IMG/VR virus record: IMGVR_UViG_3300008110_010375
DNA: 64,000 nt
Strand: one strand, 5' to 3'
DNA from: a virus
In this document: positions 1,270-18,312 of the stretch, in pieces
Layout of the letters: every line of letters starts with the position of its first letter
Numbering within the stretch: position 1 is the first letter of the stretch
The notes under the pieces: generated by a model
Databases searched by the model: none
Told to the model about the DNA's origin: nothing
Seen by the model: the letters and a program-made list of their open reading frames with translations, nothing else
Made by a program: the position numbers and the translations under genes

Positions 1270-2336
1270 AGATCGCACTTATAACGGACACACACTGGGG
1301 AATCAGAAACGATTCTCCGGTGATGCTGAGCCAGATGAAGAAGTTTTTAGATGAAGTTTTCTTTCCTACGATCGATAGTCAAGATATCTATACTGTTATC
1401 CATCTGGGGGATCTTGTTGATCGCCGCAAGTACATTAATTATGTGACGGCGAAGCGCCTGCGCGACGACTTCCTTGAGCCACTTCGCCGACGCAACATCG
1501 ACGTGCACATCATCGCCGGCAACCACGATACGTACTTCAAGAACACGAACGACATCAACAGTCTTCGTGAGCTGCTTGATCGTAAGTATCCCAACATCAA
1601 CATATACGACAACGTTGCAGCGGAGATGATCTTCGCGGATAAGACCAAGATATTCATGCTGCCGTGGATCTGCGACGAGAATCGCGATCAGTGCATGAAG
1701 GCGATCGACGAGACCAACGCCCCGATACTGATGGGGCACTTGGAGCTCAACGGATTTGAGATGTACAGGGGACAGGTGAATGAACACGGCGATGATCCTA
1801 AGATCTTTGATAAGTTCGATCTCGTATGCTCTGGGCATTATCATACTCGCTCCTCTCGCTCTAACATTCACTACCTTGGCACTCCTGCTCAATACACTTG
1901 GTCTGATTACGGAGACACTAAGGGCTTTTATGTGCTGGATACGGAAACTCGAGGGTTGACATTTATCGAAAACCCGTATAAGATATTCTTTAAGTTTCAC
2001 TACGACGACATCAACAAGCAGATGGACGAGGTCTTGGTGTTCGACGCCGCGCAGTACAAGGATACGTACGTCAAGGTGATCGTCAAGAACAAGACCAACC
2101 CGTACTGGTTCGACCTTGTGATCGATAAGATCGAGAAGTCCGGACCCGCCGACATCCAGATCGTCGAGGATCACTTCAACCTGAACCTTGAGGACGACAA
2201 CGACATCGTCAACGAGGCTGAGGACACCATCACCATCATACGCAAGTTCGTCGACTCGATGAACGTGAACACCGATAAGAAGCGCGTTGAAAACATCATC
2301 CAGTCACTATACATTGAAGCGCACGAGATAGAATGA
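1266..2336 (+). CDS. 47: Recombination endonuclease subunit gp47 (Mre11/SbcD-like)
   Basis: Metallophosphoesterase motifs TDTHWG, GDLVD, GNHD, SGHYH. Confidence 0.95.
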   Translation: MKIALITDTHWGIRNDSPVMLSQMKKFLDEVFFPTIDSQDIYTVIHLGDLVDRRKYINYVTAKRLRDDFLEPLRRRNIDVHIIAGNHDTYFKNTNDINSLRELLDRKYPNINIYDNVAAEMIFADKTKIFMLPWICDENRDQCMKAIDETNAPILMGHLELNGFEMYRGQVNEHGDDPKIFDKFDLVCSGHYHTRSSRSNIHYLGTPAQYTWSDYGDTKGFYVLDTETRGLTFIENPYKIFFKFHYDDINKQMDEVLVFDAAQYKDTYVKVIVKNKTNPYWFDLVIDKIEKSGPADIQIVEDHFNLNLEDDNDIVNEAEDTITIIRKFVDSMNVNTDKKRVENIIQSLYIEAHEIE

Positions 2337-4048
2337 TCTACTTCAAAGCAATCCGTTGGAAGAACTTCTTATCAACAGGAAACGCTTTCACCGAGCTGAA
2401 GTTGAACCAGTCGGACACCACACTCATCGTAGGTGAGAACGGTGCCGGCAAGTCGACGCTGCTCGATGCATTGTCGTTTGTACTGTACAACAAGCCATTC
2501 CGCAAAGTCAACAAGTCTCAGCTGATGAACTCGATCAACAAGAAAGATACGTTGGTTGAGATCGACTTCGACATTGGGTCGAACCGATACCACATCAAGC
2601 GCGGCATGAAGCCGAACGTCTTCGAGGTTCACCAGAACGGTAAGCTGCTCAACCAAGAGGCGGCGGACCGCGACTATCAGACTGTGCTTGAGAAGCAGAT
2701 CCTAAAGCTGAATCACAAGAGCTTCTGTCAAGTCGTGGTGCTCGGCTCAGCCTCGTTCGTCCCGTTCATGGAGCTTCCCGCCGGTCAGCGGCGCGAGGTG
2801 ATCGAAGACTTGCTCGACATCCAGATATTCTCGGTGATGAACTCACTGCTCAGGGAAAAGATCTCAGGCAACAACGCCGCGATCACCAAGGTCGAGTACG
2901 AATGCGACCTGACGTCTGAGAAGATCAAGATGCAGACGCAGATCATCGAGAGCACGAAGCTTCTCAACGACACATACGTGGCGAAGCTCAAGGAAGAGCT
3001 AAATAAGAACACAGACAGGATAGAGGAGGAGCGCGATGCTGTTAAGCGACTCAGCGAGAAAGCAGTATCCCTTAAAGCCGAGATCGAAGACCAAGAGTCG
3101 ATCGGCGAGCGTCAAAAAAAGCTACAACGACTCGAGGTACAACTCGCTGATAAAGTTGCCAAACTCACGGCTGACATCGAGTTCTTTTCTTCACACGATA
3201 GCTGTCCTACATGCAAGCAGGACATTGACCATACCTTTAAGTGTGAGACTGTCGGTGATAAACAGGGCCAAGTTCAAGAAACACGGGACGCAATCGATAA
3301 ACTACAAGTGGAGATCACGCGAGTTCTTGATAGGCTACAATCCATCGCACGGGTGGCTGCTGACATTAATTCCGTGAACATCGAAGTCATCACCAAGAAC
3401 AACACGATCAGCAATTTGATCGACCAGTGCAAGTCGCTCGCGGCTAAGATCAAGGAGACTCAGGAGTACAACGATAAGCTCGTGATCGACGACGGCGTCA
3501 TGAAGGAGCTCGAGAGAACGCTCGGTAGACTCTCCGACGACAAGGCCGAGCTGCTGCGCGACAAAGACGCCCTCAACGTCGCGTCGATCATCCTCAAAGA
3601 TACCGGCATCAAGGCTAAGATCATCAAGCAGTACGTGCCGGTCATCAACCGACTCATCAACAAGTACCTGTCGGCGATGGACTTCTTCGTCAACTTCGAG
3701 ATGGATGAGAACTTCGAGGAGAAGATCAAGTCGCGATTCCGCGATGAGTTCTCATACGCATCGTTCTCAGAGGGCGAGAAGATGAGGATCAATCTGGCGA
3801 TCCTATTCACGTGGCGGGCGATCGCCAGACTCCGCAACAGCGCGTCGACGAATCTACTGATCATGGACGAGGTGCTCGACGGGTCGCTCGACTCCAACGG
3901 CACCGATGAGTTCCTCAAGATAATCAGCAACCTGACGCTCGACACCAACACCTTCATCATCAGCCACAAAGTGGATCAGATGGTGGATAAGTTCGCCAAC
4001 GTCATCAAGTTTGAGAAGCACAAGAACTTCAGTAGGATAGCGGCGTGA
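2333..4048 (+). CDS. 46: Recombination ATPase subunit gp46 (Rad50/SbcC-like)
   Basis: Walker A GENGAGKS, CPTC zinc hook, FSEGE signature, LLIMDE Walker B. Confidence 0.96.
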   Translation: MIYFKAIRWKNFLSTGNAFTELKLNQSDTTLIVGENGAGKSTLLDALSFVLYNKPFRKVNKSQLMNSINKKDTLVEIDFDIGSNRYHIKRGMKPNVFEVHQNGKLLNQEAADRDYQTVLEKQILKLNHKSFCQVVVLGSASFVPFMELPAGQRREVIEDLLDIQIFSVMNSLLREKISGNNAAITKVEYECDLTSEKIKMQTQIIESTKLLNDTYVAKLKEELNKNTDRIEEERDAVKRLSEKAVSLKAEIEDQESIGERQKKLQRLEVQLADKVAKLTADIEFFSSHDSCPTCKQDIDHTFKCETVGDKQGQVQETRDAIDKLQVEITRVLDRLQSIARVAADINSVNIEVITKNNTISNLIDQCKSLAAKIKETQEYNDKLVIDDGVMKELERTLGRLSDDKAELLRDKDALNVASIILKDTGIKAKIIKQYVPVINRLINKYLSAMDFFVNFEMDENFEEKIKSRFRDEFSYASFSEGEKMRINLAILFTWRAIARLRNSASTNLLIMDEVLDGSLDSNGTDEFLKIISNLTLDTNTFIISHKVDQMVDKFANVIKFEKHKNFSRIAA

Positions 4049-4686
4049 CCAAGAAGCAATATCTTAACAACTTTCATTCAACTGAACTCGCTGATAAGAT
4101 AAAGAAACTTTACAGCTGCGAGTTGATCACACACGATCAATATATGAATATGAATCCTAGAAAAAGTTTAATTTATCAGTATTTTACTATTGACACTTTC
4201 TACTATTTGGATATGATATTTGACAATGAAGACTACGACTATTACGATATAGGTTGTGGTGATAATTTTTTTAAGAAAATTTATAGCGACAAGTTTAATG
4301 TAATAGGTATAGATACTAATGATGATGCTGATCTTCACTGTACCTTTGAAGAATTTTTGAGTAAGAATAGAAACAAAGTCGATAGAGCCTTTGCCATCAA
4401 CTCTCTGCATTTTGTACCATTTGAAAGAATAAAAGATAGAATCATAGAATACATATCAATGTTCAAGAAAGATGGTAAAGGGCTAATCACGTTCAATATA
4501 GGTATGATGAATAGGCTTAATAAAGTTCATCAGACTAAATACGTATTCGTTGAAGCGATGCAGAGTTTAAAGAATGATCTAAAAGATAAAGTCGACTTCT
4601 TCTTCGTTGAAATAAGCGATGAAGGAGCGAACGGAATCGACGGTACCACTAAGATATGCTTCAAAGTTTTAGAAGAGATTGAATGA
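4045..4686 (+). CDS. Putative class I SAM-dependent methyltransferase, AT-rich
   Basis: YDIGCGDN motif I, VIGID, INSLHF; visibly lower GC than flanks. Confidence 0.6.
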   Translation: MTKKQYLNNFHSTELADKIKKLYSCELITHDQYMNMNPRKSLIYQYFTIDTFYYLDMIFDNEDYDYYDIGCGDNFFKKIYSDKFNVIGIDTNDDADLHCTFEEFLSKNRNKVDRAFAINSLHFVPFERIKDRIIEYISMFKKDGKGLITFNIGMMNRLNKVHQTKYVFVEAMQSLKNDLKDKVDFFFVEISDEGANGIDGTTKICFKVLEEIE

Positions 4687-5191
4687 TATGACAGAGATCG
4701 TAAAGTTTCCTAACCCCATACTAAGGATGCCGACGCGCCAGTTCAACTTCGTCAACCCAGAAGTTGATCCACATGAGCTCGTGCAGGAGATGCTTCAAGT
4801 TATGAACGACAACAAGGGTATAGGTCTGTCGGCGAATCAGATCGGCTACAACCTACGCGTATTTGTGATGCGCGGTTTAGAACAGAACTACGCCTGCTTC
4901 AACCCAAAGATCGTGAGCTTCGGCGAAGGCACGAACGTTCTTGAAGAGGGATGCCTATCTTTTCCCGGTCTGAACGTAAAGATCAAGCGATTCAACAGCC
5001 TGCGCCTAAGGTTCCAGACCGCGTCAGGCGACGTGGATACGATCAACGTTTCAGGTCTGACGGCCCGTGTCGTGCAGCACGAGATCGACCATCTAGATGG
5101 ATACGAGTTCTTCAATCGCGCGAATAAGTTTCATCGCGACAAAGCGTTCAAGAAGCAGAAGGAATACTTAAATGGAACTAGATCAGCATAA
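4679..5191 (+). CDS. def: Peptide deformylase
   Basis: GIGLSANQ, EGCLS and QHEIDHLDG motifs. Confidence 0.95.
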   Translation: MNDMTEIVKFPNPILRMPTRQFNFVNPEVDPHELVQEMLQVMNDNKGIGLSANQIGYNLRVFVMRGLEQNYACFNPKIVSFGEGTNVLEEGCLSFPGLNVKIKRFNSLRLRFQTASGDVDTINVSGLTARVVQHEIDHLDGYEFFNRANKFHRDKAFKKQKEYLNGTRSA

Positions 5192-5438
5192 GCGTCCTGG
5201 GTTCAGGATCAAAGACTACTTCATCAGCTTTCCGGAAGGTGAGTTTGTCCATGAAAACGACGACGGGACCATGTCATTAGATATTGACATTTTCCGTATC
5301 GATGGTAATAATAACCTTGTAGCCATGGATGAAGCCAGCAAAGACGCGGAGATCGAAGCCCTTCGGCCAGAGATCGAGGCGTGGGTAAACACAGCTCTAG
5401 AAGAAGCTATCAAGCGAGCCGAGGAAGAACATAAGTGA
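5172..5438 (+). CDS. Hypothetical protein
   Basis: ORF packed between neighbours with overlapping start/stop. Confidence 0.6.
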   Translation: MELDQHKRPGFRIKDYFISFPEGEFVHENDDGTMSLDIDIFRIDGNNNLVAMDEASKDAEIEALRPEIEAWVNTALEEAIKRAEEEHK

Positions 5439-5974
5439 ACATATTCTACATCAGTGAAGACCCGTTCGAAGCCGCCCAGATGATGGTCGACAAGCACGTG
5501 GTCAAGATGATCCTCGAGTCGGCGCAGCTTCTATCGACCGCGCACCGTCTCATCGACGGCGAGGAATTCGTCGGTCAGTCTCTCTCCGGTCGCAAAGCAA
5601 AGCGCTGGCGTCTTCCAGACTTTCGCGACGCGGTCTTATATCAAGCCACGCACATCAACCACCCGTCGGCGGTCTGGTGTCGCGAGTCCCGCGAGAACTA
5701 CAACTGGCTGTTCAGGCACTTCGCCGCGCTGATGGCCGAGTATACCCATCGCTACGGTAAGCACCACAAGTGCGAGGGTCAGCTCGCTGAGTACTTGATG
5801 CAGTCACCAAACAACATCGCCAAGGGCGGCTTGACCAAGATGCCTTCGGCCATGGCCGACGAGTACAAGATCAGCGACGACCCGTTGACAAACTACAGAA
5901 ACTATTATAAGATCGGTAAATCTAGAATGCATAGATGGACCAAACGCCAACCGCCGGAATGGATAGCAGCATGA
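5435..5974 (+). CDS. Pyrimidine-dimer DNA glycosylase (DenV-like) family protein
   Basis: MNIFY...DKHVVKMILESAQLLSTAH...HINHPSAVW...YRNYY pattern. Confidence 0.75.
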   Translation: MNIFYISEDPFEAAQMMVDKHVVKMILESAQLLSTAHRLIDGEEFVGQSLSGRKAKRWRLPDFRDAVLYQATHINHPSAVWCRESRENYNWLFRHFAALMAEYTHRYGKHHKCEGQLAEYLMQSPNNIAKGGLTKMPSAMADEYKISDDPLTNYRNYYKIGKSRMHRWTKRQPPEWIAA

Positions 5975-6372
5975 GCAAAGACTGGGTACACGACATCGCG
6001 ATGATGCATGAGCACTACAAAGTGCATCCCGTCATCGAGAACATGGATAAAGAAACCCTTGAGAAGTTTCTCAAGTTCCGCATCAACTTCCTCAAAGAAG
6101 AACTCGACGAGCTTCGCGACGCTGAGAACGCCGAAGACGTCGTCGACGCGCTCATCGACCTCTGCGTCGTGGCGATCGGTACGCTTGACACCTTCAAGGT
6201 GGACTCACACAAAGCTTGGGACGCGGTTCTGGAAGCCAACATGAACAAGAAGACCGGTGTCAAGGCGAGCCGCCCGAACCCGCTTGGACTTCCAGACCTG
6301 ATCAAGCCGGAAGGCTGGGAGCCCCCAAGCCATTCAAACAATTACGGTTTTTTAAGTAAAATCTTTGGTTGA
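5971..6372 (+). CDS. MazG-like / all-alpha NTP pyrophosphohydrolase
   Basis: LKEELDEL...DALIDL...VLEANMNK...DLIKPEGW. Confidence 0.8.
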   Translation: MSKDWVHDIAMMHEHYKVHPVIENMDKETLEKFLKFRINFLKEELDELRDAENAEDVVDALIDLCVVAIGTLDTFKVDSHKAWDAVLEANMNKKTGVKASRPNPLGLPDLIKPEGWEPPSHSNNYGFLSKIFG

Positions 6373-6397
6373 CATTTTAATCTACTCATTGTATACT
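6369..6397 (+). promoter_or_regulatory. Sigma70-type promoter
   Basis: TTGACA-17nt-TATACT upstream of the modification cluster. Confidence 0.75.
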
Positions 6398-6438
6398 ATA
6401 AAAGTATCCTGCGCTGAGCGCTTAATTCGGAGAAAAAT

Positions 6439-7023
6439 ATGAGTGACCTTGCTACCTACGCCGACAAGATTTTGTCGGCTGAACCTGTAAAAGTCCAAAG
6501 AACAGAAGAGCTAAATAAAAAGTTCACGGATATAGCGAATGAGATTTATCGCTGTCCTTTTCGCAATAAGAATCGTCGTGAATTTAAGACTGTGTTTGAG
6601 TCCGTCGAAAAGATGGTCATTGAACACGCACTATCAAAGCTCACTGGACTTGCGATGAACTGGCAATCTTTTGATCACACCAATCGTGATACATACGCTT
6701 GGGACGTGATTGATCTAGAAACTAAAAAAACTTTTGAGTGCAAGCGCTGGGCCGAGAAGTGGTTTTCATTCAACAATAAAGATATCTCAACGTTCACAAA
6801 AAACATCGACATCATCGACTACTTCGTGTCGGGCAAAGTGTTTCGCACGCCGTCTTTCTATACGGTGGCTTTTCACTTGGTAGCCGACGCGAAGTCGTTC
6901 GAGAAGTATGTTCGCCCATCACAGTACACAACAAAACTGTACTACGATCACCACACGGCTATGAAGAAAGGTGACGCTTTCTTTCGTGACCACGTCTATT
7001 TTGAGAATGGAACAGCAGCATGA
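6439..7023 (+). CDS. Hypothetical protein, possible PD-(D/E)xK nuclease
   Basis: GGAG RBS; WDVIDLETKKTFECK resembles a D...ExK active site. Confidence 0.45.
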   Translation: MSDLATYADKILSAEPVKVQRTEELNKKFTDIANEIYRCPFRNKNRREFKTVFESVEKMVIEHALSKLTGLAMNWQSFDHTNRDTYAWDVIDLETKKTFECKRWAEKWFSFNNKDISTFTKNIDIIDYFVSGKVFRTPSFYTVAFHLVADAKSFEKYVRPSQYTTKLYYDHHTAMKKGDAFFRDHVYFENGTAA

Positions 7024-7385
7024 CAGACAAAGAATCCGTGAAAGTGCTTCAAGAGTGCATCGACCTGCAGCTCAAGAAGTCTCAAGACTATCAGAACCCG
7101 AACTCAAACGTGGTTCAAGCCATGCACTACCGCCGCGGCATCGATACGATCCACGACACGCTTCAAGGCAAGCTCTATCGCGCCCAATCGCTTCTTGAGT
7201 CCGGCCGCGCCGACCAAGCGAACTTCGAGTCGCTTGAGGACACGTACAAAGATCTCATCAACTACGCTTCCTTCGCAGTGTCTTGGCTTCGCGGCAAGAT
7301 CGAAGGCCAAGATCCCGAGCGCGACATCTTCAACAAGAAGCGCGAGCAGTCAAAGTACTATTACGAGAAAGATCGCAACAAATGA
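7020..7385 (+). CDS. Nucleotide-modification-associated domain 1 (DUF1599-like) protein
   Basis: KKSQDY...KLYR...ESLEDTYKDLINYA pattern; adjacent to dCMP hydroxymethylase. Confidence 0.65.
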   Translation: MTDKESVKVLQECIDLQLKKSQDYQNPNSNVVQAMHYRRGIDTIHDTLQGKLYRAQSLLESGRADQANFESLEDTYKDLINYASFAVSWLRGKIEGQDPERDIFNKKREQSKYYYEKDRNK

Positions 7386-8029
7386 TGACGATCGACGAGA
7401 TACGACTTCGCTTCAAGTACGACTACGACCTCGAAGTCTTTGTGACCGATAAGTCAGGCGTCAGGATGCTCGAGATCATGAACGCCAGCTTCATCGCCGA
7501 TCGACCGACGATCTTCGGCACGATCAACGAAGACTACGTCAAGCGCGAGCTTGAGTGGTACGAGTCTATGTCGCGCAACGTCAACGATATTCCCGGCGGG
7601 CCTCCGGCGATCTGGCAGCAGGTCGCGAGCGAGAGCGGTGAGATCAACTCCAACTACGGTTGGTGCATCTGGTCGGACGCGAACTACGCACAGTACGACA
7701 ACGTAGTCGCCGAGCTTCAAAAGAACCCAGAGTCTCGACGCGCGACCATGATCTACACACGCCCAAGTATGTGGCTCGACTACAATCGCGACGGCATGAG
7801 CGACTTCATGTGCACCAACACCGTGCAGTATATGATCCGACACGATCGCCTGCACGCTCTCGTGTACATGCGTTCGAACGACGTCGTGTTCGGCTACAAG
7901 AACGATCGCGCTTGGCAGAAGCACGTGCTCGATCGCCTCTGCGATGAGCTCGGCTACGAGCCCGGAAACATCTACTGGAACGTCGCCTCGCTCCATGTGT
8001 ATGAGAGGCACATCGACCTTGTCCGGTAA
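7382..8029 (+). CDS. 42: dCMP hydroxymethylase (T4 gp42-like)
   Basis: SDFMCTNTVQY...MRSNDVVFGYKND closely matches T4 gp42, including the Asp that selects dCMP over dUMP. Confidence 0.9.
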   Translation: MMTIDEIRLRFKYDYDLEVFVTDKSGVRMLEIMNASFIADRPTIFGTINEDYVKRELEWYESMSRNVNDIPGGPPAIWQQVASESGEINSNYGWCIWSDANYAQYDNVVAELQKNPESRRATMIYTRPSMWLDYNRDGMSDFMCTNTVQYMIRHDRLHALVYMRSNDVVFGYKNDRAWQKHVLDRLCDELGYEPGNIYWNVASLHVYERHIDLVR

Positions 8030-8519
8030 GTGGATCGATAAGTACTTCAAGCTCGCTGAGCAGGTGTCGAGTTGGTCGAAAGACCCAAGCACCAAGGTCG
8101 GTGCGATCGCCGTCGGCGCGAAGGGTCAGATCCTGTCGCAGGGATACAACGGGTTCCCACGCGGGATCGAGGACAGTGAAGCTCGGCTGAGCGATCGCGG
8201 ACAGAAGTATAAGTTCGTGGTCCACGCCGAGCAGAACTGCATCTACAACGCGACGCTGAACGGGGTCAGCCTGTCAGACGCCGATATGTACATCTGGGGA
8301 CTTCCTCTCTGCTCGGAGTGCGCGAAGGGTGTCATCCAAGTGGGCGTCAAGCGCGTCTTCATGTGCTACCCTTCTGAGATCCCAAGTAAATGGAGCGACT
8401 CGTTCGAGCTGACGGCCGCTATGTTGAATGAAGCTAAAGTTGAGTGGAAGTGCTATGAATCGAGTCTTAGTAGTAGGTATGAACCCGTCGAACACTCCGG
8501 GAACGACGACGGGCGTTGA
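8019..8519 (+). CDS. cd: dCMP deaminase
   Basis: SKDPSTKVGA, GYNGFPRG, HAEQN and PLCSEC zinc motifs; TTG start inferred. Confidence 0.9.
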   Translation: MSGKWIDKYFKLAEQVSSWSKDPSTKVGAIAVGAKGQILSQGYNGFPRGIEDSEARLSDRGQKYKFVVHAEQNCIYNATLNGVSLSDADMYIWGLPLCSECAKGVIQVGVKRVFMCYPSEIPSKWSDSFELTAAMLNEAKVEWKCYESSLSSRYEPVEHSGNDDGR

Positions 8520-8832
8520 GCGCAAGAACTCAACGTTCGATCGCCTGCACAAGTGGTTCGATCACGCCGGCGTTCACTACTTCTCTTTCGTAAATACAAC
8601 CGACAAGCGCGGTGAGATCAAGCCGGTCGACATCGACTGGGATACACTCAAGCTGTGTCTCAAAGGTCACACCAAGATTATTGCACTCGGCGGCTTCGCC
8701 TCGACGGCGCTTGGCAGGCTAAATATAGAACACTACACTTTGCCGCACCCGTCACCTCGCAACAGGAAGTTCAACGACGCGGCCTATGAACCAATGGTCA
8801 TGGAAGACTTGAGAAGGTACGTTACAAAATGA
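8455..8832 (+). CDS. Uracil-DNA-glycosylase-superfamily small protein
   Basis: VLVVGMNPS (motif A-like), IIALG and LPHPSPRN (motif B-like). Confidence 0.65.
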   Translation: MNRVLVVGMNPSNTPGTTTGVERKNSTFDRLHKWFDHAGVHYFSFVNTTDKRGEIKPVDIDWDTLKLCLKGHTKIIALGGFASTALGRLNIEHYTLPHPSPRNRKFNDAAYEPMVMEDLRRYVTK

Positions 8833-10061
8833 AAGTTGCGATTCTCATGGGACGCGGCATCGAGGGATGCGGCGTCTCTAAGTTTACTATCGAGATGGCG
8901 AAGTACCTGCAGAAGCACGGTCACGAATACGTCGTCATCGCGGCCAAGGACAAGACTTGGTCGCGAAAGAACTCTCATGAGATGCCCAACCTCATGTACA
9001 TCAAGTTCGCCGAGGACGGCGCGGTCGATCACGTTGCCGACGCCTGCAACACCTGCGACTTGGTCGTCATCAACTCGCTGCCTCCGTTCGCCTACAAGAA
9101 GAACTTGAACTACGACGTCAAGGTCGCTGAGAACTTCCGCAAGATACTGCAGAAGATCCAAGCGCCTACGGTGTTGTTTCAACACGACCATAATAAGATC
9201 TCAATCACGCGCAACGACTGCCTTAAGGAATCTATCGAGAAGTCGAAGGCTCTGTTCGCCCACTCACCGACCGGCGACTTCGCGACGGTAGTCGAGTCGC
9301 TGTCTGAAGTCGGCGGGGTGTTAGGGTTCTTTGGCGCTGAGCCTGTGAAGCGTGAGATCTTAAACTTCCAGCCCGGGATGTATTTCGACGAGGTGCGCAA
9401 GAAGTACTGGAAACCCATCGAGCAGACGGACAAGATGTGTCACCGTTGGATCGGCCGCATGGCGCTGTGGAAGGGTCCGCGACTGATGTTCGACTTCCAT
9501 GAGAAGCACCTGCGCAAGATGAACGCGCTGACGATCCTCGAGGGCATGGAGAAGTCGCTGGCTTTCGTCGAGATCAAGCAGAAGTACTCATTCCAGTACT
9601 TCAACACCGAGAACCCCGACAACGTCGACTTTACTAAATACTACGGCGACACCGCGACAGTGTTCTCATTCTACAAGAACCATGAGCTGCTCGAGCGCCT
9701 CTCAAAGTCGGGATACGGGTACCAGCTCTCGCTTCTGGACTCAAGGTACATCAAGCGATCGATCGAGTACACACACTGCGAGGTCGCCGCCGCCGGAGCG
9801 ATTCCAGTCTTTCATCGCGGATACGGCGAAGCCTGCACGCATCGAGTCCTCGGCAAGCCCTTGACAGAATGCGCCGACAGTGGTACAATCTGGCTATCAA
9901 ACGACAACATGGAGCAGTGTGCTGATTTGATCGCGACGCTCAACACAGACGACGGCCTTCGCGACGAGTATCGCGAGAAGGCCTATGAGTTCTATAAATC
10001 ACACCAAGACGCAGACGCTGTCTTCGACGAAGCGTTCAAACTGATCGGAGAGGCGAAATGA
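8829..10061 (+). CDS. agt: DNA alpha-glucosyltransferase (T4 AGT-like)
   Basis: GRGIEGCGVSKF, QHDH, NFQP, RWIGR..WKG, RSIEYTH and REKAYEFY..HQD collinear with T4 AGT. Confidence 0.9.
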   Translation: MKVAILMGRGIEGCGVSKFTIEMAKYLQKHGHEYVVIAAKDKTWSRKNSHEMPNLMYIKFAEDGAVDHVADACNTCDLVVINSLPPFAYKKNLNYDVKVAENFRKILQKIQAPTVLFQHDHNKISITRNDCLKESIEKSKALFAHSPTGDFATVVESLSEVGGVLGFFGAEPVKREILNFQPGMYFDEVRKKYWKPIEQTDKMCHRWIGRMALWKGPRLMFDFHEKHLRKMNALTILEGMEKSLAFVEIKQKYSFQYFNTENPDNVDFTKYYGDTATVFSFYKNHELLERLSKSGYGYQLSLLDSRYIKRSIEYTHCEVAAAGAIPVFHRGYGEACTHRVLGKPLTECADSGTIWLSNDNMEQCADLIATLNTDDGLRDEYREKAYEFYKSHQDADAVFDEAFKLIGEAK

Positions 10062-11254
10062 AGCACGCAACAATCGTACCGCTCATAGGCGGTGAGACCC
10101 TAGGCTCTGAAAAAGCTTTCGGAAGCCGCCCAGTCTGGCTCGCTTCGTATGAAGCGTTTCAGGCAAACGACAGCCACCTGCTTAACTACTACAACAACGA
10201 GGTTCCGTATCACCTGATCGACAAGGGAAGCTTCCCAACCGAGAAGGTCGACGTCATCAGCACAGTGTGTCCATGCGCCGGCCTGTCGCAGCTGTCGCAC
10301 GGCTTCGGCGACCACAACCCGAACAACAAGTGGATGATCGAGACGGCGAAGTACGTGCTCGGCGAGCTTAAGCCCGAGGTGTTCTGGGGTGAGAACGCCC
10401 CAGGATTCGCAGGCAAGATCGGTGAGAACGTTCGCAACCAAGTGCGCCAGATCGGTCTCGACAACGGATACAGCATGACGGTCTACCGCACGCGCTCGCT
10501 CCTTCACGGGGTGGCGCAGGTGCGCGAGCGAGCTTTCTACTTCTTCTGGCGCGGCGACAAGGTTCCCGTGTTGAACTTCTACCAGCGCGAGCGTCCGACG
10601 ATTGAGGACACGATACTCAGCGTCACGTCTAACTTCCAGATGGATCCGATCAATCCAAAGACTCCGTCGAAGGACGATCCCTACTACCGCTTCATCCTTG
10701 AGCACATACACGGAGGCGTGAGTCATCGCGACTTCTGTAAGAACGTCGAGCCCGCCAAAGCGCGCGGACAGGACGTCTTATCATATATAGAACGCGTGGG
10801 CGTCGACTACGACGAGGTCGCCGAGTGGATGGGAGCCAACGGCTATCCCAAAGAAGTTGAGAAGTGCAAGGGTCGCAAGGCCAAGATTGCGGCCGGCGGA
10901 AACATCATGCGCCGCGGAACCATAGTCCCACGAGACTACATCGGCGCGTTCGTCGGTCACTACCCAATGATGCTGACGCATCCCGTCGAAGACCGCTACA
11001 TAACATACAGGGAAGCCATGACGATCATGGGACTCCCGCAAGACTTTGAGCTGCTCAACCCAAAGAAGAGCGCGAACCACATCTGTCAAAATGTACCAGT
11101 GAGCACCGCACATGACATGGCAACCGAAGTCCGTGAATATCTTGAAGGAAAGCGAGAACTCGTATCGTCTCGTCTCGCTTTCCAATACAACTTCTCTAGA
11201 ACAAATGAGTTTACTGATGAACGAACAACCTCTGCGCTCGATGCCTTCTTCTGA
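10058..11254 (+). CDS. C5-cytosine DNA methyltransferase-fold protein with atypical motif I
   Basis: CPCAGLS (motif IV), ENA (VI), QVRER (VIII), RYITYREAMTIMGLP (IX), QNVP (X). Confidence 0.8.
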   Translation: MKHATIVPLIGGETLGSEKAFGSRPVWLASYEAFQANDSHLLNYYNNEVPYHLIDKGSFPTEKVDVISTVCPCAGLSQLSHGFGDHNPNNKWMIETAKYVLGELKPEVFWGENAPGFAGKIGENVRNQVRQIGLDNGYSMTVYRTRSLLHGVAQVRERAFYFFWRGDKVPVLNFYQRERPTIEDTILSVTSNFQMDPINPKTPSKDDPYYRFILEHIHGGVSHRDFCKNVEPAKARGQDVLSYIERVGVDYDEVAEWMGANGYPKEVEKCKGRKAKIAAGGNIMRRGTIVPRDYIGAFVGHYPMMLTHPVEDRYITYREAMTIMGLPQDFELLNPKKSANHICQNVPVSTAHDMATEVREYLEGKRELVSSRLAFQYNFSRTNEFTDERTTSALDAFF

Positions 11255-11576
11255 GCTTAAGCACCTTGGGCTGGAAGATGTCGTGGTGAAAAAAAAGGAC
11301 TACAAGTACAACGAAGACCTGTACATTTCAGAAATCGCGGATTATATTGGTAAGACATACGGTGAGCACTACTCGCGGAACAAGTTCCAAGCGACTGAGT
11401 TCATCATAGATTCCGGTCACGGCACCGGCTTCTGCGTCGGCAACGTCCTAAAGTACGCGCAGCGCTATGGGCGCAAGGGCTCACCGGACGACTGGAGGAA
11501 AGACCTCATGAAGGTGATCCACTACGCGATCATCCAGCTTCACGTTCACGATACAACCTACGAGGACGACAAGTGA
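11241..11576 (+). CDS. DUF3310-like protein
   Basis: HY...GFCVGNVLKYAQRYGRK...DLMKVIHY; start uncertain. Confidence 0.65.
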   Translation: MPSSELKHLGLEDVVVKKKDYKYNEDLYISEIADYIGKTYGEHYSRNKFQATEFIIDSGHGTGFCVGNVLKYAQRYGRKGSPDDWRKDLMKVIHYAIIQLHVHDTTYEDDK

Positions 11577-11761
11577 ACAAGTTTCTACAATATGTAAAGC
11601 ATTCAAACATACACGTGTCGCTTAGCTTGAATCCGTTCAAGTGGCGCGTTATTATTGATTGTTCTAGACGCAGCGATATGGATCCTGGGCTGTTGCTAGA
11701 TTTTCTAATGATTTTAGGTCCACTAAAGATTGCAATGATCATCGATGACGGGAGTTGGTAA
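11573..11761 (+). CDS. Hypothetical protein
   Basis: Short ORF coupled to neighbours (GTGA overlap). Confidence 0.5.
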   Translation: MNKFLQYVKHSNIHVSLSLNPFKWRVIIDCSRRSDMDPGLLLDFLMILGPLKIAMIIDDGSW

Positions 11762-11763
11762 CG

Positions 11764-12630
11764 ATGGAAATCCAGATTAAAGTTGAAGAGCTGCAGAAGA
11801 AGAAACTCTTCGTGGCTACACCTATGTACGGCGGACAGTGTAACGGCATGTACGCCCGCTCGATGTGTGACCTCACTGCCATGTGCTTGAAGTACGGCAT
11901 CGAGATGCGCTCATACTTCTTGTTCAATGAGTCGCTCATCACTCGAGCCAGAAACTATTGTGTTGACGAATTCCTGCGCTCGGGTTATACTCACCTTATG
12001 TTCGTCGACTCGGACATCGGATTCAATCCCCAAGACGTGCTCGCTCTTCTCGCTCTCCAGACCGACGAGTCTCCATACGACATCATCGGCGGTGCGTACC
12101 CGAAGAAGTGCATCACTTGGGAAAAGATCAAGATGGCCGTCGATAAGGGAGTCGCGGATCAGAACCCAGCGCTTCTTGAAGACTTCGTCGGCGACTTCGT
12201 CTTCAACCCAGTGATGGAGAAGGGCGAAGCTTCCAAGTCGATCAAGCTCGACGAGCCGGCGGAAGTGCTTGAGATCGGTACTGGCTTCATGATGGTTCGC
12301 CGCGCGACCTTCGAGGAGTACGTCAAGAAGTACCCAAACATCATGTACAAGCCCGACCACGTCCGCACCGCTGAGTTCGACGGCACGCGCCGCATCGGCA
12401 TGTACTTCCAAGCCGAGGTCGACCCTGAGTCCGAGCGCTACTTGTCGGAAGACTACCTCTTCTGTCAGAACTCACGCAAGGCCGGAATGAAGGTTTGGCT
12501 CTGCCCATGGATGCACCTGCAGCACGCAGGCTTCTACACCTTCGGCGGCAAGCTCGCGGCTTTGGCATCTATCGGTGCCTCCGCGACGGCAGACCCCGCA
12601 CAGATCGCCGCAACAAAAGCAAAGAAGTGA
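11764..12630 (+). CDS. GT-A fold glycosyltransferase-like protein
   Basis: ATPMYGG, ESLITRARN, FVDSD (DxD), GTGFM and SEDY motifs. Confidence 0.7.
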   Translation: MEIQIKVEELQKKKLFVATPMYGGQCNGMYARSMCDLTAMCLKYGIEMRSYFLFNESLITRARNYCVDEFLRSGYTHLMFVDSDIGFNPQDVLALLALQTDESPYDIIGGAYPKKCITWEKIKMAVDKGVADQNPALLEDFVGDFVFNPVMEKGEASKSIKLDEPAEVLEIGTGFMMVRRATFEEYVKKYPNIMYKPDHVRTAEFDGTRRIGMYFQAEVDPESERYLSEDYLFCQNSRKAGMKVWLCPWMHLQHAGFYTFGGKLAALASIGASATADPAQIAATKAKK

Positions 12631-12646
12631 TTGGAGACTATACATT

Positions 12647-13309
12647 ATGAAGTTGAGTGACAACACCATCGCGATTCTCAAGAACTTCGCGACCATCAAC
12701 CCGTCGATCCTGGTCCGTCCAGGATCGACACTCTCCACCATCTCACCTCAGAAGTCGATCTTCGCGAAAGCTCCGGTCGAGGAGTCGTTTCCTCGCGAGT
12801 TCGCCATCTATGAGTTGAGCAAGTTCCTCGGCGTCCTCTCGCTCTTCAACGAGCCTGAGATCGAGTTTAAAGAAAAGTCGATGCTCATCAAGTCCGGCAA
12901 GCAGCAGATCAGCTACACATACGCCGAGCCGTCGATGATCGTCGGCGCGCCTGAGAAGGACATCACCTTCCCTGAGCCTGAGATCGACTTCAACATCACT
13001 CAGGAGGAGCTCCAGAAGGTCGTCCGCGCGACCGGCGTCCTCCAAGTTCCAGACGTCAGCATCCAAGGCAACAAGGAGAAGGTTCGCGTCTACGCCATGA
13101 ACGCGAAGAACCCGACCACCGACACCTTCAGCATCGACGTCGGCGAGACCGACAAGCACTTCGACATGATCTTCAAGGCCGAGAACATCATCAAGCTCGT
13201 TCCGGCGAACTACAACGTAAAGATCTCGTCGAAGGGTTTAGCCCTGTACACTTCCGATAAAATAAGTTACTATGTAGCTACTGAGTCCAACAGCAGCTAT
13301 CAGGGGTGA
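12647..13309 (+). CDS. 45: Sliding clamp gp45
   Basis: MKLSDNTIAILKNFATINPSI; upstream of clamp loader. Confidence 0.93.
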   Translation: MKLSDNTIAILKNFATINPSILVRPGSTLSTISPQKSIFAKAPVEESFPREFAIYELSKFLGVLSLFNEPEIEFKEKSMLIKSGKQQISYTYAEPSMIVGAPEKDITFPEPEIDFNITQEELQKVVRATGVLQVPDVSIQGNKEKVRVYAMNAKNPTTDTFSIDVGETDKHFDMIFKAENIIKLVPANYNVKISSKGLALYTSDKISYYVATESNSSYQG

Positions 13310-14247
13310 GCATGGAAGAGTTCCTTTGGGTCGAGAAGTATCGGCCAAAGACTATCGAAGAATGCGTCCTTCCCGACGAACTAAAGAGCACCTTTCAGAA
13401 GTTCGTGGAGAAGGGCGAGATCCCAAACCTACTTTTAACTGGCGGCGCCGGCGTCGGTAAGACCACGGTCGCTCGGGCCATGCTCGAGCAGATCGGCGCC
13501 GACTACATAGTGATCAACGGGAGTATGAATGGAAACATCGACACACTACGAAACGAGATCCTACAGTTTGCTTCCTCAGTTTCTTTTACTGGAAGCAGGA
13601 AATACGTCATCCTTGACGAAGCAGACTACCTCAACGCCAACTCAACCCAACCAGCTCTACGAAATTTCATGGAGGAATTCTCAAGGAACTGTGGGTTCAT
13701 ACTCACCTGTAACTTCAGAAACCGCATCATCGAGCCCCTACACTCTCGTTGTTCCGTTGTCGAGTTCAAAATTTCCAAAGCGGATCTTCCTCGACTTGCA
13801 GCTCAATTCTTCAAGCGCGTCCTTTCAATTCTCGATGGAAATGGCGTAAAGTATGATAAAGCTGTTGTTGCTGAGCTTATTCAGCGCCACCTGCCTGATT
13901 GGCGTCGCGTGCTTAATGAACTACAGAGATACTCCGTAAATGGAACCATCGACACTGGAATCTTTGCTAACCACGGCGCTTCTGCTTTTACTGATCTGGT
14001 CGACATTCTGAAGCAGAAGAAGTTCGGCGAGATGCGTAAGTGGGTGGGTGAGAACTCCGACATGGACTCGACCACGCTCTTCCGTAAGTTCTACGACACC
14101 GCCTACGAGAAGGTCAATCCCAAGTCCATCCCTGAGCTCGTCCTCATCATCGCCAAGTACCAGTACCAAGCGGCGTTCGTGGCCGACCATGAGATCAACA
14201 CGGCGGCCTTCCTCACCGAGGTCATGATGGCGACGGAGTTCACATGA
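13306..14247 (+). CDS. 44: Clamp loader large subunit gp44
   Basis: LWVEKYRP, GGAGVGKTT, DEAD, SRC motifs. Confidence 0.96.
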   Translation: MSMEEFLWVEKYRPKTIEECVLPDELKSTFQKFVEKGEIPNLLLTGGAGVGKTTVARAMLEQIGADYIVINGSMNGNIDTLRNEILQFASSVSFTGSRKYVILDEADYLNANSTQPALRNFMEEFSRNCGFILTCNFRNRIIEPLHSRCSVVEFKISKADLPRLAAQFFKRVLSILDGNGVKYDKAVVAELIQRHLPDWRRVLNELQRYSVNGTIDTGIFANHGASAFTDLVDILKQKKFGEMRKWVGENSDMDSTTLFRKFYDTAYEKVNPKSIPELVLIIAKYQYQAAFVADHEINTAAFLTEVMMATEFT

Positions 14248-14666
14248 GTCCATTCGACTTCGTCAACGCGATAAACACGACCAAGAAAGACCTGATCCGC
14301 GACTCGGAGAACCCCGAGCTCGCGGAGAAGTCGTACAACCCGTTCCTGATAAACAGGGCCCTGTCTTACTTCGTCGACACCCTGCTGTACGCGAATGAGA
14401 TGAACCTGCACAATACCGTCGAAAAACAGCTGCAAAACGATTATCTGATAAATAGTATCAGGAAAGGTAAGCGTTTCTCGAAGTGGGCGAAGGCCGTCGA
14501 GGAACCTGATGTTCAGTGCGTGCAGGAATTCTACAAGATAAGCTACAGACGGGCTCTAGATGTCTGCGGTGTCCTTACGAAAGAACAGATCGACCTTATA
14601 AAAGAAAAGTTAATAAAAGGTGGTACTGATGTTCAATCTAAGCCAGCTGGTCGAGGTTCGACTTAG
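14244..14666 (+). CDS. 62: Clamp loader small subunit gp62
   Basis: PFDFVNAIN, YNPFLINRALS, KRFSKW; synteny. Confidence 0.92.
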   Translation: MSPFDFVNAINTTKKDLIRDSENPELAEKSYNPFLINRALSYFVDTLLYANEMNLHNTVEKQLQNDYLINSIRKGKRFSKWAKAVEEPDVQCVQEFYKISYRRALDVCGVLTKEQIDLIKEKLIKGGTDVQSKPAGRGST

Positions 14667-15065: not shown

Positions 15066-16139
15066 ATGCTGAAGGTGCATCAGGAGTGGGATCCTCTTAA
15101 AGTATGTGTGGTAGGTAAGAACTATCCGCCCGAGTTCTACTCGTTCATGAAGAACGCAAAGATGCGCGATCTCTTTGAGAAGATCGCGCGCGAGACTGAA
15201 GAAGACTACCAATCGCTCATCAAGATCTTAAAGTCGTTCAACGTCGAGGTGCTTCGTCCCGACGTACCGGACGTCGTCCCGCAGGAGTACATCGATCAGA
15301 ACCTACCGATCCCAGCGCCGGTGAGCTCTATCCCGCGCGACCAGATGATCATGATCGGTGAGACGTTCTTTCTCTTCCCGTACTTCAGGGTGAACCAGAA
15401 AGTAAACTGGCGATACGAAGACCAGCGCCAGTTTAAGAACTTCGATGTATGCTGGCAGGGAATCCTTGACTACGTCGCTTCCAAGGGAAACAAAGTCGTC
15501 AACAAGCAGGATGACGAGGACTTAGCGTGGATCAAGGTCAACGGCATCTATAGGATAGGCAAGGACCTGTTCTTTGGATCGAAGGGTGAAATGTCGGACT
15601 GGAGGGTGCTCGACGCGATCGACATAATGAAGAACACATATCTCCAAGACTATACGACGCATGCAGTTACAACAGGCGGACACATCGATGGTGTATTTAG
15701 TCCTCTCAACCCAGGACTGATATTCAGCGCATACGACGCGGAGACATACGAACACACGTTCCCCGACTGGGAGGTGGTGTACTTTGAGCAGAACCGGATG
15801 AACGCCCTTGGCGAGTGGATGTATCTAAAGGAGAAGAACAACGGTAAGTGGTTCATTCCCGGTGTCGCCGACGACGATGAGATAATAGAGTACGTTGAGC
15901 ACTGGCTTCAAGACTGGCTGGGATACGTCGAGGAGACGATCTTTGACGTGAACGTCTTAATGATCGATCCAAAGAACGTCGTGGTTTCATCCTACAACGA
16001 GAAAGCTTTCAAAGCCCTTGAAAGACATGGGATCACGCCCCACATATCCCCTATGAGACACCGGTTCTTCTGGGACGGGGGAGCGCACTGTATAACCGCT
16101 GAGCTCCATCGCGAGGGCGAGAGGAAGACTTTCTTCTGA
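15066..16139 (+). CDS. Amidinotransferase family protein (copy 1)
   Basis: EWDPLK, PRD, GHIDG, DVNVL and GGAHC (catalytic His/Cys). Confidence 0.85.
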   Translation: MLKVHQEWDPLKVCVVGKNYPPEFYSFMKNAKMRDLFEKIARETEEDYQSLIKILKSFNVEVLRPDVPDVVPQEYIDQNLPIPAPVSSIPRDQMIMIGETFFLFPYFRVNQKVNWRYEDQRQFKNFDVCWQGILDYVASKGNKVVNKQDDEDLAWIKVNGIYRIGKDLFFGSKGEMSDWRVLDAIDIMKNTYLQDYTTHAVTTGGHIDGVFSPLNPGLIFSAYDAETYEHTFPDWEVVYFEQNRMNALGEWMYLKEKNNGKWFIPGVADDDEIIEYVEHWLQDWLGYVEETIFDVNVLMIDPKNVVVSSYNEKAFKALERHGITPHISPMRHRFFWDGGAHCITAELHREGERKTFF

Positions 16140-16148
16140 TCTTTTCTA

Positions 16149-16188
16149 TTGACAATTCTATGTAAATAGTGTAGGATCTAGATAATGG
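16149..16188 (+). promoter_or_regulatory. Early promoter with CTAGATAATGG extension
   Basis: TTGACA-17-TAGGAT-CTAGATAATGG. Confidence 0.75.
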
Positions 16189-16201
16189 ATTGGAGAACGA
16201 C

Positions 16202-16492
16202 ATGATCAAGAATGCGCTCGTGGCTGTCGCGTTACTGGCCGGAACCGCGTCAGCCCAAGCCGACGGGTACTTCCCTAGGCATGGACACCATCACCAGCAC
16301 TTTCGCCACAACAACGGGGGTGGAGACGCCGGTGCCGCCCTCATAGGAGGCCTGATCGGAGGCATGATCTTGAACCAGATGATGCAGCCCCCTCGTCCCC
16401 ACTACTACCAGCCTATGTGCCAGACGGTCTTCTTGGGACGGGTCTGGAACGGGTACACTTGGGTCGAGCAGTACCAGCGGATATGTGACTGA
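16202..16492 (+). CDS. Small secreted protein with glycine-zipper segment
   Basis: Signal peptide ending ASAQA, His-rich stretch, GAALIGGLIGG, C-terminal Cys pair. Confidence 0.65.
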   Translation: MIKNALVAVALLAGTASAQADGYFPRHGHHHQHFRHNNGGGDAGAALIGGLIGGMILNQMMQPPRPHYYQPMCQTVFLGRVWNGYTWVEQYQRICD

Positions 16493-16571
16493 AAAAACCT
16501 AATCTTTTCAACCACTTAGAAAAACTGAATCTTTTCAATGGCTTAGGAACCTCCCTCCTAAGCCATTGTTT
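16493..16571. repeat. Direct plus inverted repeats of TTTCAA-N4-TTAG (IHF-site-like)
   Basis: Copies at 16506 and 16533, inverted copy at 16559; hairpin CAATGGCTTAGGA/TCCTAAGCCATTG. Confidence 0.7.
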
Positions 16572-16611
16572 TTATTACATAATTTTTTTTCTTATTCCTA
16601 TCACTTTTTTA

Positions 16612-16654
16612 TTGACATTTCTGTAGAACTTTGATAAGATCTAGATAATGGCAA
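16612..16654 (+). promoter_or_regulatory. Early promoter
   Basis: TTGACA-17-TAAGAT-CTAGATAATGGCAA. Confidence 0.8.
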
Positions 16655-16875
16655 AAGGGAATAGAGACATGGACATAGCACAAGCCTCTCAGATCATAGA
16701 CAAAGTTCGCGCCGAGAACGGCTTCGGTCTCCTTGAGATGTTGGAGATCATGACCGACGAGTATCATTCGGGTGGTCTCGGATACTTCCGTGAAACATAC
16801 ACTCACGAAGAACGTACGGCCTATCTCATTCTTATGAACGGCTTTCGTGAATTCTTTGGTGAAAATAACGGTTGA
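16648..16875 (+). CDS. Hypothetical early protein
   Basis: ORF directly after promoter; alternative start 16669. Confidence 0.6.
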   Translation: MAKGNRDMDIAQASQIIDKVRAENGFGLLEMLEIMTDEYHSGGLGYFRETYTHEERTAYLILMNGFREFFGENNG

Positions 16876-16914
16876 CATTCTTATCAAAATAGTATAAGAT
16901 CTAGATAATGGCAA
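16872..16914 (+). promoter_or_regulatory. Early promoter
   Basis: TTGACA-17-TAAGAT-CTAGATAATGGCAA. Confidence 0.8.
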
Positions 16915-16933
16915 TTGAAAAGGAACCTAGACT

Positions 16934-18272: not shown

Positions 18273-18287
18273 GCCGCGTCTCCCTCG

Positions 18288-18295
18288 TATAAATA
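18288..18295 (+). promoter_or_regulatory. T4-type late promoter
   Basis: Intergenic TATAAATA; gp55 present. Confidence 0.7.
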
Positions 18296-18312
18296 GGAAC
18301 ATGGAGTGAACG

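Follow-up and report, generated by a model that had tools for sequence, protein, structure and literature searches.

A predicted hydroxymethylcytosine module with a constant methyltransferase-fold partner in uncultured T4-like phages

Which genes of a crowded phage locus make and decorate a modified cytosine, and what does an enzyme with the fold of a cytosine methyltransferase do among them? This question is raised by the IMG/VR virus record IMGVR_UViG_3300008110_010375, of which we analyzed a stretch of 64,000 nucleotides (hereafter the window; positions refer to it). The original prediction, made from the sequence alone, took positions 5971-12630 for an extended glucosyl-5-hydroxymethylcytosine (hmC) cluster, in which a GT-A-fold glycosyltransferase (GT) and an enzyme of C5-methyltransferase (MTase) fold further elaborate the base. 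We found that the extent of this cluster holds for 5971-11254, between gp46 and gp45, which is the hmC module, and that the last three genes (DUF3310, a 62-aa open reading frame (ORF) and GT-A) belong to the phage lineage instead. The MTase-fold enzyme is almost certainly a member of the module and the constant partner of gp42-type modules. The best explanation overall, for which we see about an even chance, is that cytosine would be swapped for hmC before replication and decorated afterwards, with additional chemistry by a clamp-tethered MTase-fold enzyme.

The predicted hydroxymethylcytosine module and its boundaries

The segment belongs to a T4-like phage known only from metagenomes and presents a gp55-like gene, gp47, gp46, the block of extra genes, gp45, gp44, gp62 and regA, a core gene order (gp55-47-46-…-45-44-62-regA) that matches T4. 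The proteins gp44-47 and gp62 are 28-34% identical to their T4 counterparts, in agreement with the original placement of this phage far from the T-evens. A megablast search of the region against phage isolates returned only an 80-nt match, so that no close relative is found among cultured phages. The nearest relatives on record are IMG/VR contigs; one of them (157.6 kb, 98% complete; hereafter the relative genome) encodes proteins 93-97% identical over most of the region. The arrangement recurs in dozens of IMG/VR contigs with protein identities of 60-95% and, given this recurrence, it is not due to chance. Every gene named in the original prediction was found where it had been placed, on the + strand, and the tight packing that it described was confirmed: neighboring genes of the module share a few bases, in many cases as ATGA (Table 1).

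We surveyed gene linkage in 80 IMG/VR loci retrieved with the MTase-fold protein and 80 retrieved with the GT-A protein, and tabulated the homologs of each window gene. Such a survey of the extra genes had been proposed along with the original prediction; it established linkage for the MTase-fold gene and denied it for GT-A and DUF3310. Among the MTase-fold loci, 60 have 3.5 kb or more of upstream sequence, and 58 of these contain gp42; the other two contigs begin at the deaminase gene, so that gp42 would fall outside them. Conversely, 36 of the 42 GT-A loci with enough upstream sequence contain neither gp42, nor AGT, nor the MTase-fold gene. The GT-A gene of Stenotrophomonas phage DLP_6 (70% identical) lies between peptide deformylase and gp45 without modification genes, and further homologs were found in Cr30 (Caulobacter), the phiM12 group (Sinorhizobium), an Ochrobactrum phage, a pelagiphage and cyanophages. 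Since the GT-A gene (phrog_1574) keeps the same position upstream of gp45 in relatives without gp42, AGT or the MTase-fold gene, it is a core gene of this T4-like lineage and not a part of the hmC module. Its product has no Pfam match; its structural model matches the GT-A glycosyltransferases STIV A197, LH3, ColGalT1 and GlfT2, and a DSD motif is present. The DUF3310 gene, also counted as a cluster member originally, is present in many related loci without gp42. Its start is uncertain: ATG 11112 (with a 143-nt overlap with the MTase-fold gene) or GTG 11283 (after the stop of that gene). Homologs of the 62-aa ORF, which has no family match, occur in loci both with and without gp42. Because these three genes are also found in gp42-less loci, the module ends at 11254 rather than at 12630.

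The most conserved component of the module relative to T4 is gp42, whose product matches the structures of T4 deoxycytidine monophosphate (dCMP) hydroxymethylase (1B49 and 1B5E). It is 62-65% identical to T4 gp42, roughly twice the identity observed for the flanking gp44-47 and gp62. This contrast between gp42 (7382-8029, 62%) and the flanking core genes (1266-4048 and 12647-14666) reflects either very strong constraint or transfer of the module between T4-like lineages. The catalytic Cys (ThyA C146) lies in GMSDFMCT and an Asp occupies the position of ThyA N177 (dCMP specificity); the stretches FMCTNTVQY and FGYKNDRAWQ align to 1B49 and are identical to T4 at each residue. Some gp42-like enzymes make 5-hydroxy-dCMP instead, and their diagnostic residues are given in the corresponding report (PMC13326640). 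The window's gp42 has Asp at the position of ThyA L143 (GMSDFMC) and retains Asp at that of D169 (RSNDVV), both being residues of the hydroxymethyl type. The Asn that marks RB69 gp48-type 5-hydroxy-dCMP synthases at the D169 position is not found in gp42, and 5-hydroxycytosine is not predicted because Asp stands there. AGT scores 254 bits against PF11440 (cut-off of 25 bits) over model positions 1-353 of 355, which corresponds to the full length. It is 39% identical to T4 a-gt over 411 aa and 41-42% identical to the a-gt of T4-like phages of enterobacteria. Because a hydroxymethyl-type gp42 stands together with a full-length AGT, the main virion base is very probably alpha-glucosyl-hmC (hmC plus alpha-glucose), as had been predicted from these two genes.

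The nucleotide-stage genes are consistent with such a pathway. The nearest solved relative of the MazG-like protein is the MazG-like protein DR2231, and no similarity to T4 gp56 was detected (hhalign probability 1.5%). The MazG subtype found here accompanies gp42 at 51-80% identity, whereas gp42-less relatives show only 31-39% matches. The original prediction had this protein replace gp56, and it is indeed the sole candidate for the role, as an analog of gp56; we infer that it would clear deoxycytidine triphosphate (dCTP) and dCDP, as gp56 does in T4. The DUF1599-like protein scores 24 bits against PF07659, just below the cut-off of 25 bits, and its gene is linked to gp42 in most loci. The N-terminal half of phrog_18404 matches MazG and its C-terminal half the DUF1599-like protein; because this family spans both, the two genes are linked, being fused in some phages. 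MazG together with thymidylate synthase (TS) and deaminase forms a triad described as a mark of cytosine-modified viral contigs (bioRxiv 10.1101/2024.12.05.627091). The relative genome encodes ThyX and a single gene each of the TS and PF00145 families, without a second member of the ThyA family. Given this gene content, the dCMP deaminase probably supplies deoxyuridine monophosphate (dUMP) for ThyX.

Two further genes of the module are optional. The protein encoded at 6439-7023 has no Pfam match at E<=0.01, no PHROG match and no tblastn match in 50,697 phage records. A six-sequence profile of this protein aligned with T4 DenB using hhalign (probability 95.5%, E 1.4e-08, 139 columns), spanning query residues 21-165 (profile columns 21-167) and DenB residues 24-180 of 185. 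The motifs TYAWDV and VRxSxY are common to both proteins, and a protein-language-model look-up in the ESM Atlas points to Phage_T4_End_IV. We conclude from these alignments that this is a predicted remote homolog of T4 DenB (endonuclease IV), with a putative specificity for deoxycytidine (dC). DenB cuts dC-containing DNA. Since a nuclease of this kind is tolerable only when the phage DNA lacks plain C, its presence argues that this DNA does; the gene is found in only some related loci. The uracil-DNA glycosylase (UDG)-like protein matches PF03167 weakly (17.5 bits against a cut-off of 24.3 bits). It carries GMNPS and HPSPRN, which resemble UDG motifs A and B, and its length of ~120 aa is below that of known UDGs. 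Its nearest Atlas clusters are viral proteins of ~120 aa of which 20-33% of the members match UDG, and its gene is present in about half of the related loci. We regard this mini UDG-like protein as a candidate for a glycosylase acting on deaminated bases. Inside AGT, at 9861-9889 and ~170 nt before the MTase-fold gene, lies a strong match to a sigma-70-like promoter (TTGACA-17-TACAAT, with an upstream TG); a comparable match at 6369-6397 lies ahead of the DenB-like gene.

The glycosylation genes vary between loci. AGT is found in only ~40% of the MTase-fold loci, and the slot between the deaminase/UDG-like gene and the MTase-fold gene, which always stands at the 3' end of the cassette, holds other genes elsewhere: a GT4-like protein; a beta-GT-like protein together with an epimerase/dehydratase and a protein similar to UDP-glucose dehydrogenase; UDP-galactopyranose mutase accompanied by an unknown 365-aa protein; inositol-1-phosphate synthase accompanied by a nucleoside deoxyribosyltransferase-like protein and by one weakly resembling 5-hydroxymethyldeoxyuridine (5-hmdU) DNA kinase (similarity to the helical domain, E 5e-05, just below the Pfam cut-off); or a recurrent 440-aa family without Pfam match. 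The isolate Pseudoalteromonas phage XG4 carries gp42, a sugar nucleotidyltransferase/kinase and two GTs, followed by the MTase-fold gene. The slot of the window, with AGT alone, is the simplest version. This variety suggests that many different hmC decorations exist within one phage group. Alternative cassettes are located at L048:5006-7985, L067:2187-4282, L056:3047-7954, L071:3906-8004 and L002:1329-5344. Members of the ~440-aa family (L163:3580-4902, L162:5426-6748, L075:2593-3912, L128:509-1786 and L167:5876-7189) share 23-32% identity, and their genes adjoin the MTase-fold gene except in L167, where the distance is ~2.8 kb upstream. This family is a candidate DNA-modifying partner.

The methyltransferase-fold protein and its putative clamp-binding tail

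The pairing of the MTase-fold gene with a hydroxymethyl-type TS extends beyond the close relatives of the window. It was found in phage XG4, in a polA-type phage (L166) and in contig L163, and a TS with Asp in place of N177 lies within ~3 kb of the MTase-fold gene in cyanophage S-TIM5. At 31-35% identity, members of the family are still found beside deaminases and hydroxymethyl-type TS homologs in phages of other types. No TS lies near the MTase-fold gene in three further contigs that offer more than 10 kb of context; this wider association rests on nine look-ups, only some with enough flanking sequence. The family comprises 808 clusters at E<=0.001 and 241 at E<=1e-30. No IMG/VR relatives were found for the distant member P0126, and our literature search returned no paper assigning a function to the family.

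The AlphaFold model of the MTase-fold protein (predicted local distance difference test, pLDDT, of 85) has MET1, M.HaeIII, CmoX and M.HhaI as its top Foldseek matches. We scored motif conservation over 130 cluster representatives (31-61% identity) and found PLIGG, PC(A)GLS, GENAP, HGxPQxRxR and QNVPV to be invariant or nearly so, including motifs IX and X. The catalytic motifs of C5-MTases are thus present: IV (PC), VI (ENx) and VIII (QxRxR) correspond to C73, E112, Q154, R156 and R158, all (near-)invariant. The residues on the cofactor side differ. Motif I reads PL(I/V)GGxx(I/L)(G/A) and not FxGxG, so that the Phe that stacks on adenine gives way to Ile or Val, and PCQ is replaced by PCA. The motif II acid, which binds the ribose of S-adenosylmethionine (SAM), is Glu32 in the window protein and is kept in 60-85% of its close clade; an acid is found in only 31 of the 130 wider representatives. 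The motif X Asn of HaeIII (equivalent to HhaI Asn304 and CmoX Arg350) is replaced by Gln344, and Gln is found in 128 of the 130 representatives. In CmoX, this position contacts the transferred group (PMC12783734). Four CmoX residues hold the adenosine (Phe25, Glu47, Phe48 and Asp69), and three of them have no conserved equivalent in the MTase-fold family. As judged from these residues, the cofactor side of the protein is non-canonical.

Long relatives of the family (P0060, P0064, P0081 and P0085; 598-1462 aa) carry low-complexity tails rich in Lys and Glu, one of them with a zf-CXXC domain, and look eukaryotic or giant-virus-like. We considered fusions of the MTase-fold domain to cassette genes among long homologs and rejected them, since the long forms are of this low-complexity, eukaryote-like kind. 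A second PF00145 gene was observed at L163:6086-7303, adjacent to the MTase-fold gene, and at L162:10093-11310, ~4.8 kb downstream of it.

The protein ends in …TTSALDAFF after a linker, and the tail is modeled with pLDDT below 50. We searched for the motif [STAGN][LIM][EDVNSQ]x[FYW][FLIMV] near the C-termini of all 318 window ORFs (at least 50 aa, both strands) and found only three carriers: the gp55-like protein (703-1269), the DNA polymerase (24631-27198, ending in …KKASIESFF) and the MTase-fold protein. The polymerase and gp55 of T4 present comparable endings (SLDFLFG for gp43 and SLDFLYEAND for gp55), and such hydrophobic-acidic C-termini are interchangeable epitopes for binding gp45 (PMC2988020). 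Of 62 homologs taken from T4-like loci, 55 have the motif at their very end, after a variable linker, relative to 7 of 2600 internal control stretches and to 18 of 130 wider-family representatives. These frequencies suggest that the MTase-fold enzyme is likely tethered to the gp45 sliding clamp and would act on replicating phage DNA.

Proposed pathway and alternative explanations

The pathway that we propose would begin at the nucleotide stage, where the MazG-like pyrophosphatase would remove dCTP, gp42 would convert dCMP to 5hm-dCMP and the deaminase would feed dUMP to ThyX. Where present, the DenB-like nuclease would attack dC-containing DNA. At the DNA stage, AGT would add alpha-glucose to hmC, and the MTase-fold enzyme would dock on gp45 through its C-terminal tail and scan new phage DNA. 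Its invariant Cys would attack C6 of a flipped cytosine-type base, and hmC not yet glucosylated would undergo an exchange at its 5-CH2OH, independently of SAM, to yield a second, minor base. This specific exchange is our best single guess for the enzyme, and a speculative one.

C5-MTases deprived of SAM can, in vitro, hydroxymethylate C and couple thiols to hmC (PMC7176277). Exchange at hmC, hydroxymethylation of stray C at the DNA level and methylation of stray C all fit the data about equally well, and the clamp tether suits all three, since it would give first access behind the fork. We doubt that the enzyme is a plain methylase because its cofactor side differs from that of canonical SAM enzymes, and the exchange option is favored because of this altered side and of the gene's place among enzymes acting on hmC. 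More broadly, it is possible, and we propose it tentatively, that the gp42-linked family consists of natural clamp-tethered enzymes that act independently of SAM, by exchange of the hmC hydroxyl or by hydroxymethylation of stray C.

Several observations weigh against this pathway. The clamp motif is short and known from the sequence only. No T4 gp1-like deoxynucleoside monophosphate kinase, which would make 5hm-dCDP, was found in the window (Walker-A scan) and none matched in the relative genome, where the search yielded only a sub-threshold Thymidylate_kin match; because of this, full replacement of C is something that we can only infer. T4 itself manages without an MTase-fold enzyme of this kind, and to our knowledge SAM-independent chemistry has no natural precedent in the C5-MTase fold. 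The window protein retains Glu32 (motif II) and Asp55 (motif III), which is compatible with SAM binding. No gene that could supply a nucleophile is conserved with the MTase-fold gene. Finally, the fusions to zf-CXXC among the eukaryote-like relatives suggest plain C as the substrate of some members, and the second PF00145 gene near the MTase-fold gene in some distant loci would be odd if no C were available.

Some of these points would be accommodated by the simplest chemistry, that of an ordinary SAM-dependent C5-methyltransferase riding on the clamp. Such an enzyme would methylate stray C or one motif and thereby protect the DNA against the phage's own dC nuclease and host restriction, and the virion bases would be glucosyl-hmC with traces of 5-methylcytosine. 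The protein has an intact fold and a complete set of catalytic motifs, it retains the Glu of motif II and the Asp of motif III, and the CXXC-fused relatives point to unmodified C as the substrate. An enzyme of use only when C is non-self would likewise be consistent with the strict co-occurrence with gp42, and a DenB-like nuclease is present. We nevertheless regard an ordinary methylase as doubtful, considering the family-wide loss of the aromatic stackers and of the ribose acid (retained in 31/130) and the replacement of Asn304 by Gln. Moreover, a sequence-specific enzyme would patch only a fraction of the stray C, and T4 reaches complete replacement by dCTP clearance alone. A different target was also considered: the enzyme could act on host dC DNA, as a shut-off or marking weapon affordable only to a phage without plain C. 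The DenB-like nuclease is such a dC-directed weapon co-occurring with hmC, the cytosine-recognition residues of the MTase-fold protein are intact, and a UDG-like gene lies nearby, which is suggestive in that SAM-starved C5-MTases deaminate C to U. However, the clamp epitope implies replicating phage DNA, which argues against a host target, the gene is placed with DNA glycosyltransferases and not with the nuclease, and the UDG-like gene is missing from about half of the loci; the probability of a host target is small.

The original model, in which the GT-A and MTase-fold enzymes both elaborate glucosyl-hmC (for instance with a second sugar or a further group), is improbable. It is true that the GT-A protein has the appropriate fold with a DxD-like motif, that the two genes are close together and co-oriented, and that glucosyl-hmC receives a second glucose in T2 and T6. 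However, the GT-A gene keeps its position in DLP_6 and in 36 of 42 informative loci, all without gp42, AGT or the MTase-fold gene, it also occurs in cyanophages and a pelagiphage, its structural neighbors are GT-A enzymes acting on proteins or polysaccharides, and a C5-MTase fold attacks C6/C5 of the base and not a sugar. Alternatively, the MTase-fold protein could be a non-enzymatic reader of hmC or C, or a scaffold at the fork, for instance recruiting or timing a glycosyltransferase; its clamp tail and its translational coupling (ATGA) to the upstream GT would suit such a role. The invariance of Cys, Glu and Arg over 130 clusters at 31-61% identity argues for catalysis, and the upstream partner changes family between loci, which makes a reader or scaffold very improbable.

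Relation to known systems and neighboring genes

The module resembles the T4/T-even pathway in its gp42 ortholog with the same active-site signature, its AGT ortholog, its dCMP deaminase, its DenB homolog and its core synteny. It differs from T4 in that the modification genes of the window form one block between gp46 and gp45, dCTP clearance is assigned to an unrelated MazG-like protein, neither a gp1-like kinase nor a beta-GT was found, the relative genome has ThyX in place of td, and a constant C5-MTase-fold gene is added. The closest comparison for the latter is CmoX (PDB 8YF3; PMC12783734), the third-ranked Foldseek match and likewise a phage C5-MTase fold in which the Asn at HhaI N304 is replaced. 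Sequence similarity between the two is marginal (profile E 1e-05); the window protein has Gln344 in place of Arg350 and CPC (CPCAG) in place of SPPC, and no CmoA or CmoY gene was found among the module genes, to which the scan was confined. CmoX works on plain C, in phages without dCMP hydroxymethylase.

Clusters combining an MTase, a TET-type dioxygenase (5mYOX) and GTs (PMC8256090; bioRxiv 10.1101/2023.12.21.572611) also place a C5-MTase fold beside DNA glycosyltransferases and use hmC as a handle for sugars. There, hmC arises on DNA from 5-methylcytosine; here, it would be made as a nucleotide by gp42, so that a methylase of this fold has no obvious substrate. A search of the relative genome for Tet_JBP gave no match, although its control gave none either. 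The 5-hydroxycytosine clusters of RB69, DLP3 and RL38JI, as described in the available part of PMC13326640, similarly group a TS homolog, sugar-nucleotide genes and DNA GTs, and loci related to the window carry UDP-galactopyranose mutase, epimerases and UDP-glucose dehydrogenase-like proteins as these clusters do. The TS of the window differs in keeping Asp169 (hydroxymethyl type), and that part of the report makes no mention of a C5-MTase-fold partner. Finally, the tethering of DNMT1 to PCNA in eukaryotes and the clamp epitopes of T4 gp43, gp55 and gp33 offer parallels for a cytosine-C5 enzyme fold bearing a short putative clamp-binding peptide on a flexible linker, with the motif type of T4 gp43 and gp55 in the present case. 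Here, the tether is predicted from sequence, the clamp is the phage gp45 and the template would contain hmC, which does not correspond to maintenance methylation.

The glucosyl-hmC part of the module is a new member of a known pathway, in a new phage group. What we found beyond the literature is a modular layout with swappable sugars, together with an obligate MTase-fold partner that has a predicted non-canonical cofactor site and a putative clamp epitope. Glucosyl-hmC, so far a T-even speciality, would here form a portable block carried by a large group of uncultured T4-like phages, with slot cassettes of alpha-glucose, galactofuranose, uronate/pentose and inositol/kinase types, and this diversity points to rapid diversification of the DNA coat against restriction, glycosylase and CRISPR defenses. 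With no obvious substrate, an altered cofactor site and a clamp tail, the MTase-fold partner is a cloneable candidate for new DNA chemistry, and it could become a tool for labeling hmC or installing it enzymatically. If our proposal is true, this enzyme would be the one fixed element beside an hmC-glycosylation cassette that is itself hypervariable, across hundreds of environmental phages, and a phage DNA-modifying enzyme riding the sliding clamp would be a new entry in the clamp's tool belt. The SAM-independent reading, if true, would represent the first natural use of C5-methyltransferase reactions so far observed only as side activities in vitro.

Table 1. Features of the hmC module and of the genes that follow it, with positions in the window
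Feature	Position	Strand	Evidence
MazG-like (MazG/PRA-PH) all-alpha nucleoside triphosphate pyrophosphohydrolase	5971..6372	+	PF01503 9.4e-07; phrog_671 1.6e-18
Predicted remote T4 DenB homolog (194 aa), optional module gene	6439..7023	+	hhalign profile match
DUF1599-like (nucleotide modification associated domain 1)	7020..7385	+	PF07659 4.9e-05; phrog_1485 6.5e-14
gp42-type dCMP hydroxymethylase (5hmdCMP synthase)	7382..8029	+	phmmer 2.6e-89 to 1B49
dCMP deaminase	~8001..8519	+	PF00383 1e-16; start inferred from in-frame ATG 8001
Mini UDG-like protein, ~120 aa, optional module gene	~8455..8832	+	PF03167 E 0.0046, below cut-off
DNA alpha-glucosyltransferase AGT	8829..10061	+	PF11440 2.9e-75
C5-DNA-methyltransferase-fold enzyme	10058..11254	+	PF00145 4.3e-19; AlphaFold/Foldseek
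C-terminal tail of the MTase-fold protein, …TTSALDAFF, predicted gp45-binding epitope	11225..11251	+	motif
DUF3310 protein, neighboring lineage gene	~11283..11576	+	PF11753 3e-09; phrog_480 2e-28
62-aa ORF, neighboring lineage gene	11573..11761	+	no family match
GT-A-fold glycosyltransferase, lineage core gene	11755..12630	+	phrog_1574 1.6e-65; structural model
gp45 sliding clamp	12647..13309	+	PF09116 1e-12; 32% identical to T4 gp45; start at ATG 12647

Upstream of the module, the window encodes a phage peptide deformylase (4679-5191; PF01327 4.5e-40) and a T4 endonuclease V-like pyrimidine-dimer glycosylase (5435-5974; PF03013; denV-like), whose stop overlaps the start of the MazG-like gene at 5971 (ATGA). 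Downstream of regA, positions 15066-23705 hold a run of orphan genes of biosynthetic appearance. Among them are a DUF932 protein (17394-18272), a protein similar to class I glutamine amidotransferases (18550-19212), a radical SAM protein (19543-20778) and a pair of large ORFs that have no Pfam match. This run may represent a second route of DNA or nucleotide modification. Finally, the G+C content is low at 42001-44000 (0.36) and 56001-58000 (0.41) relative to the window average of ~0.51, and these stretches may correspond to recently acquired genes.

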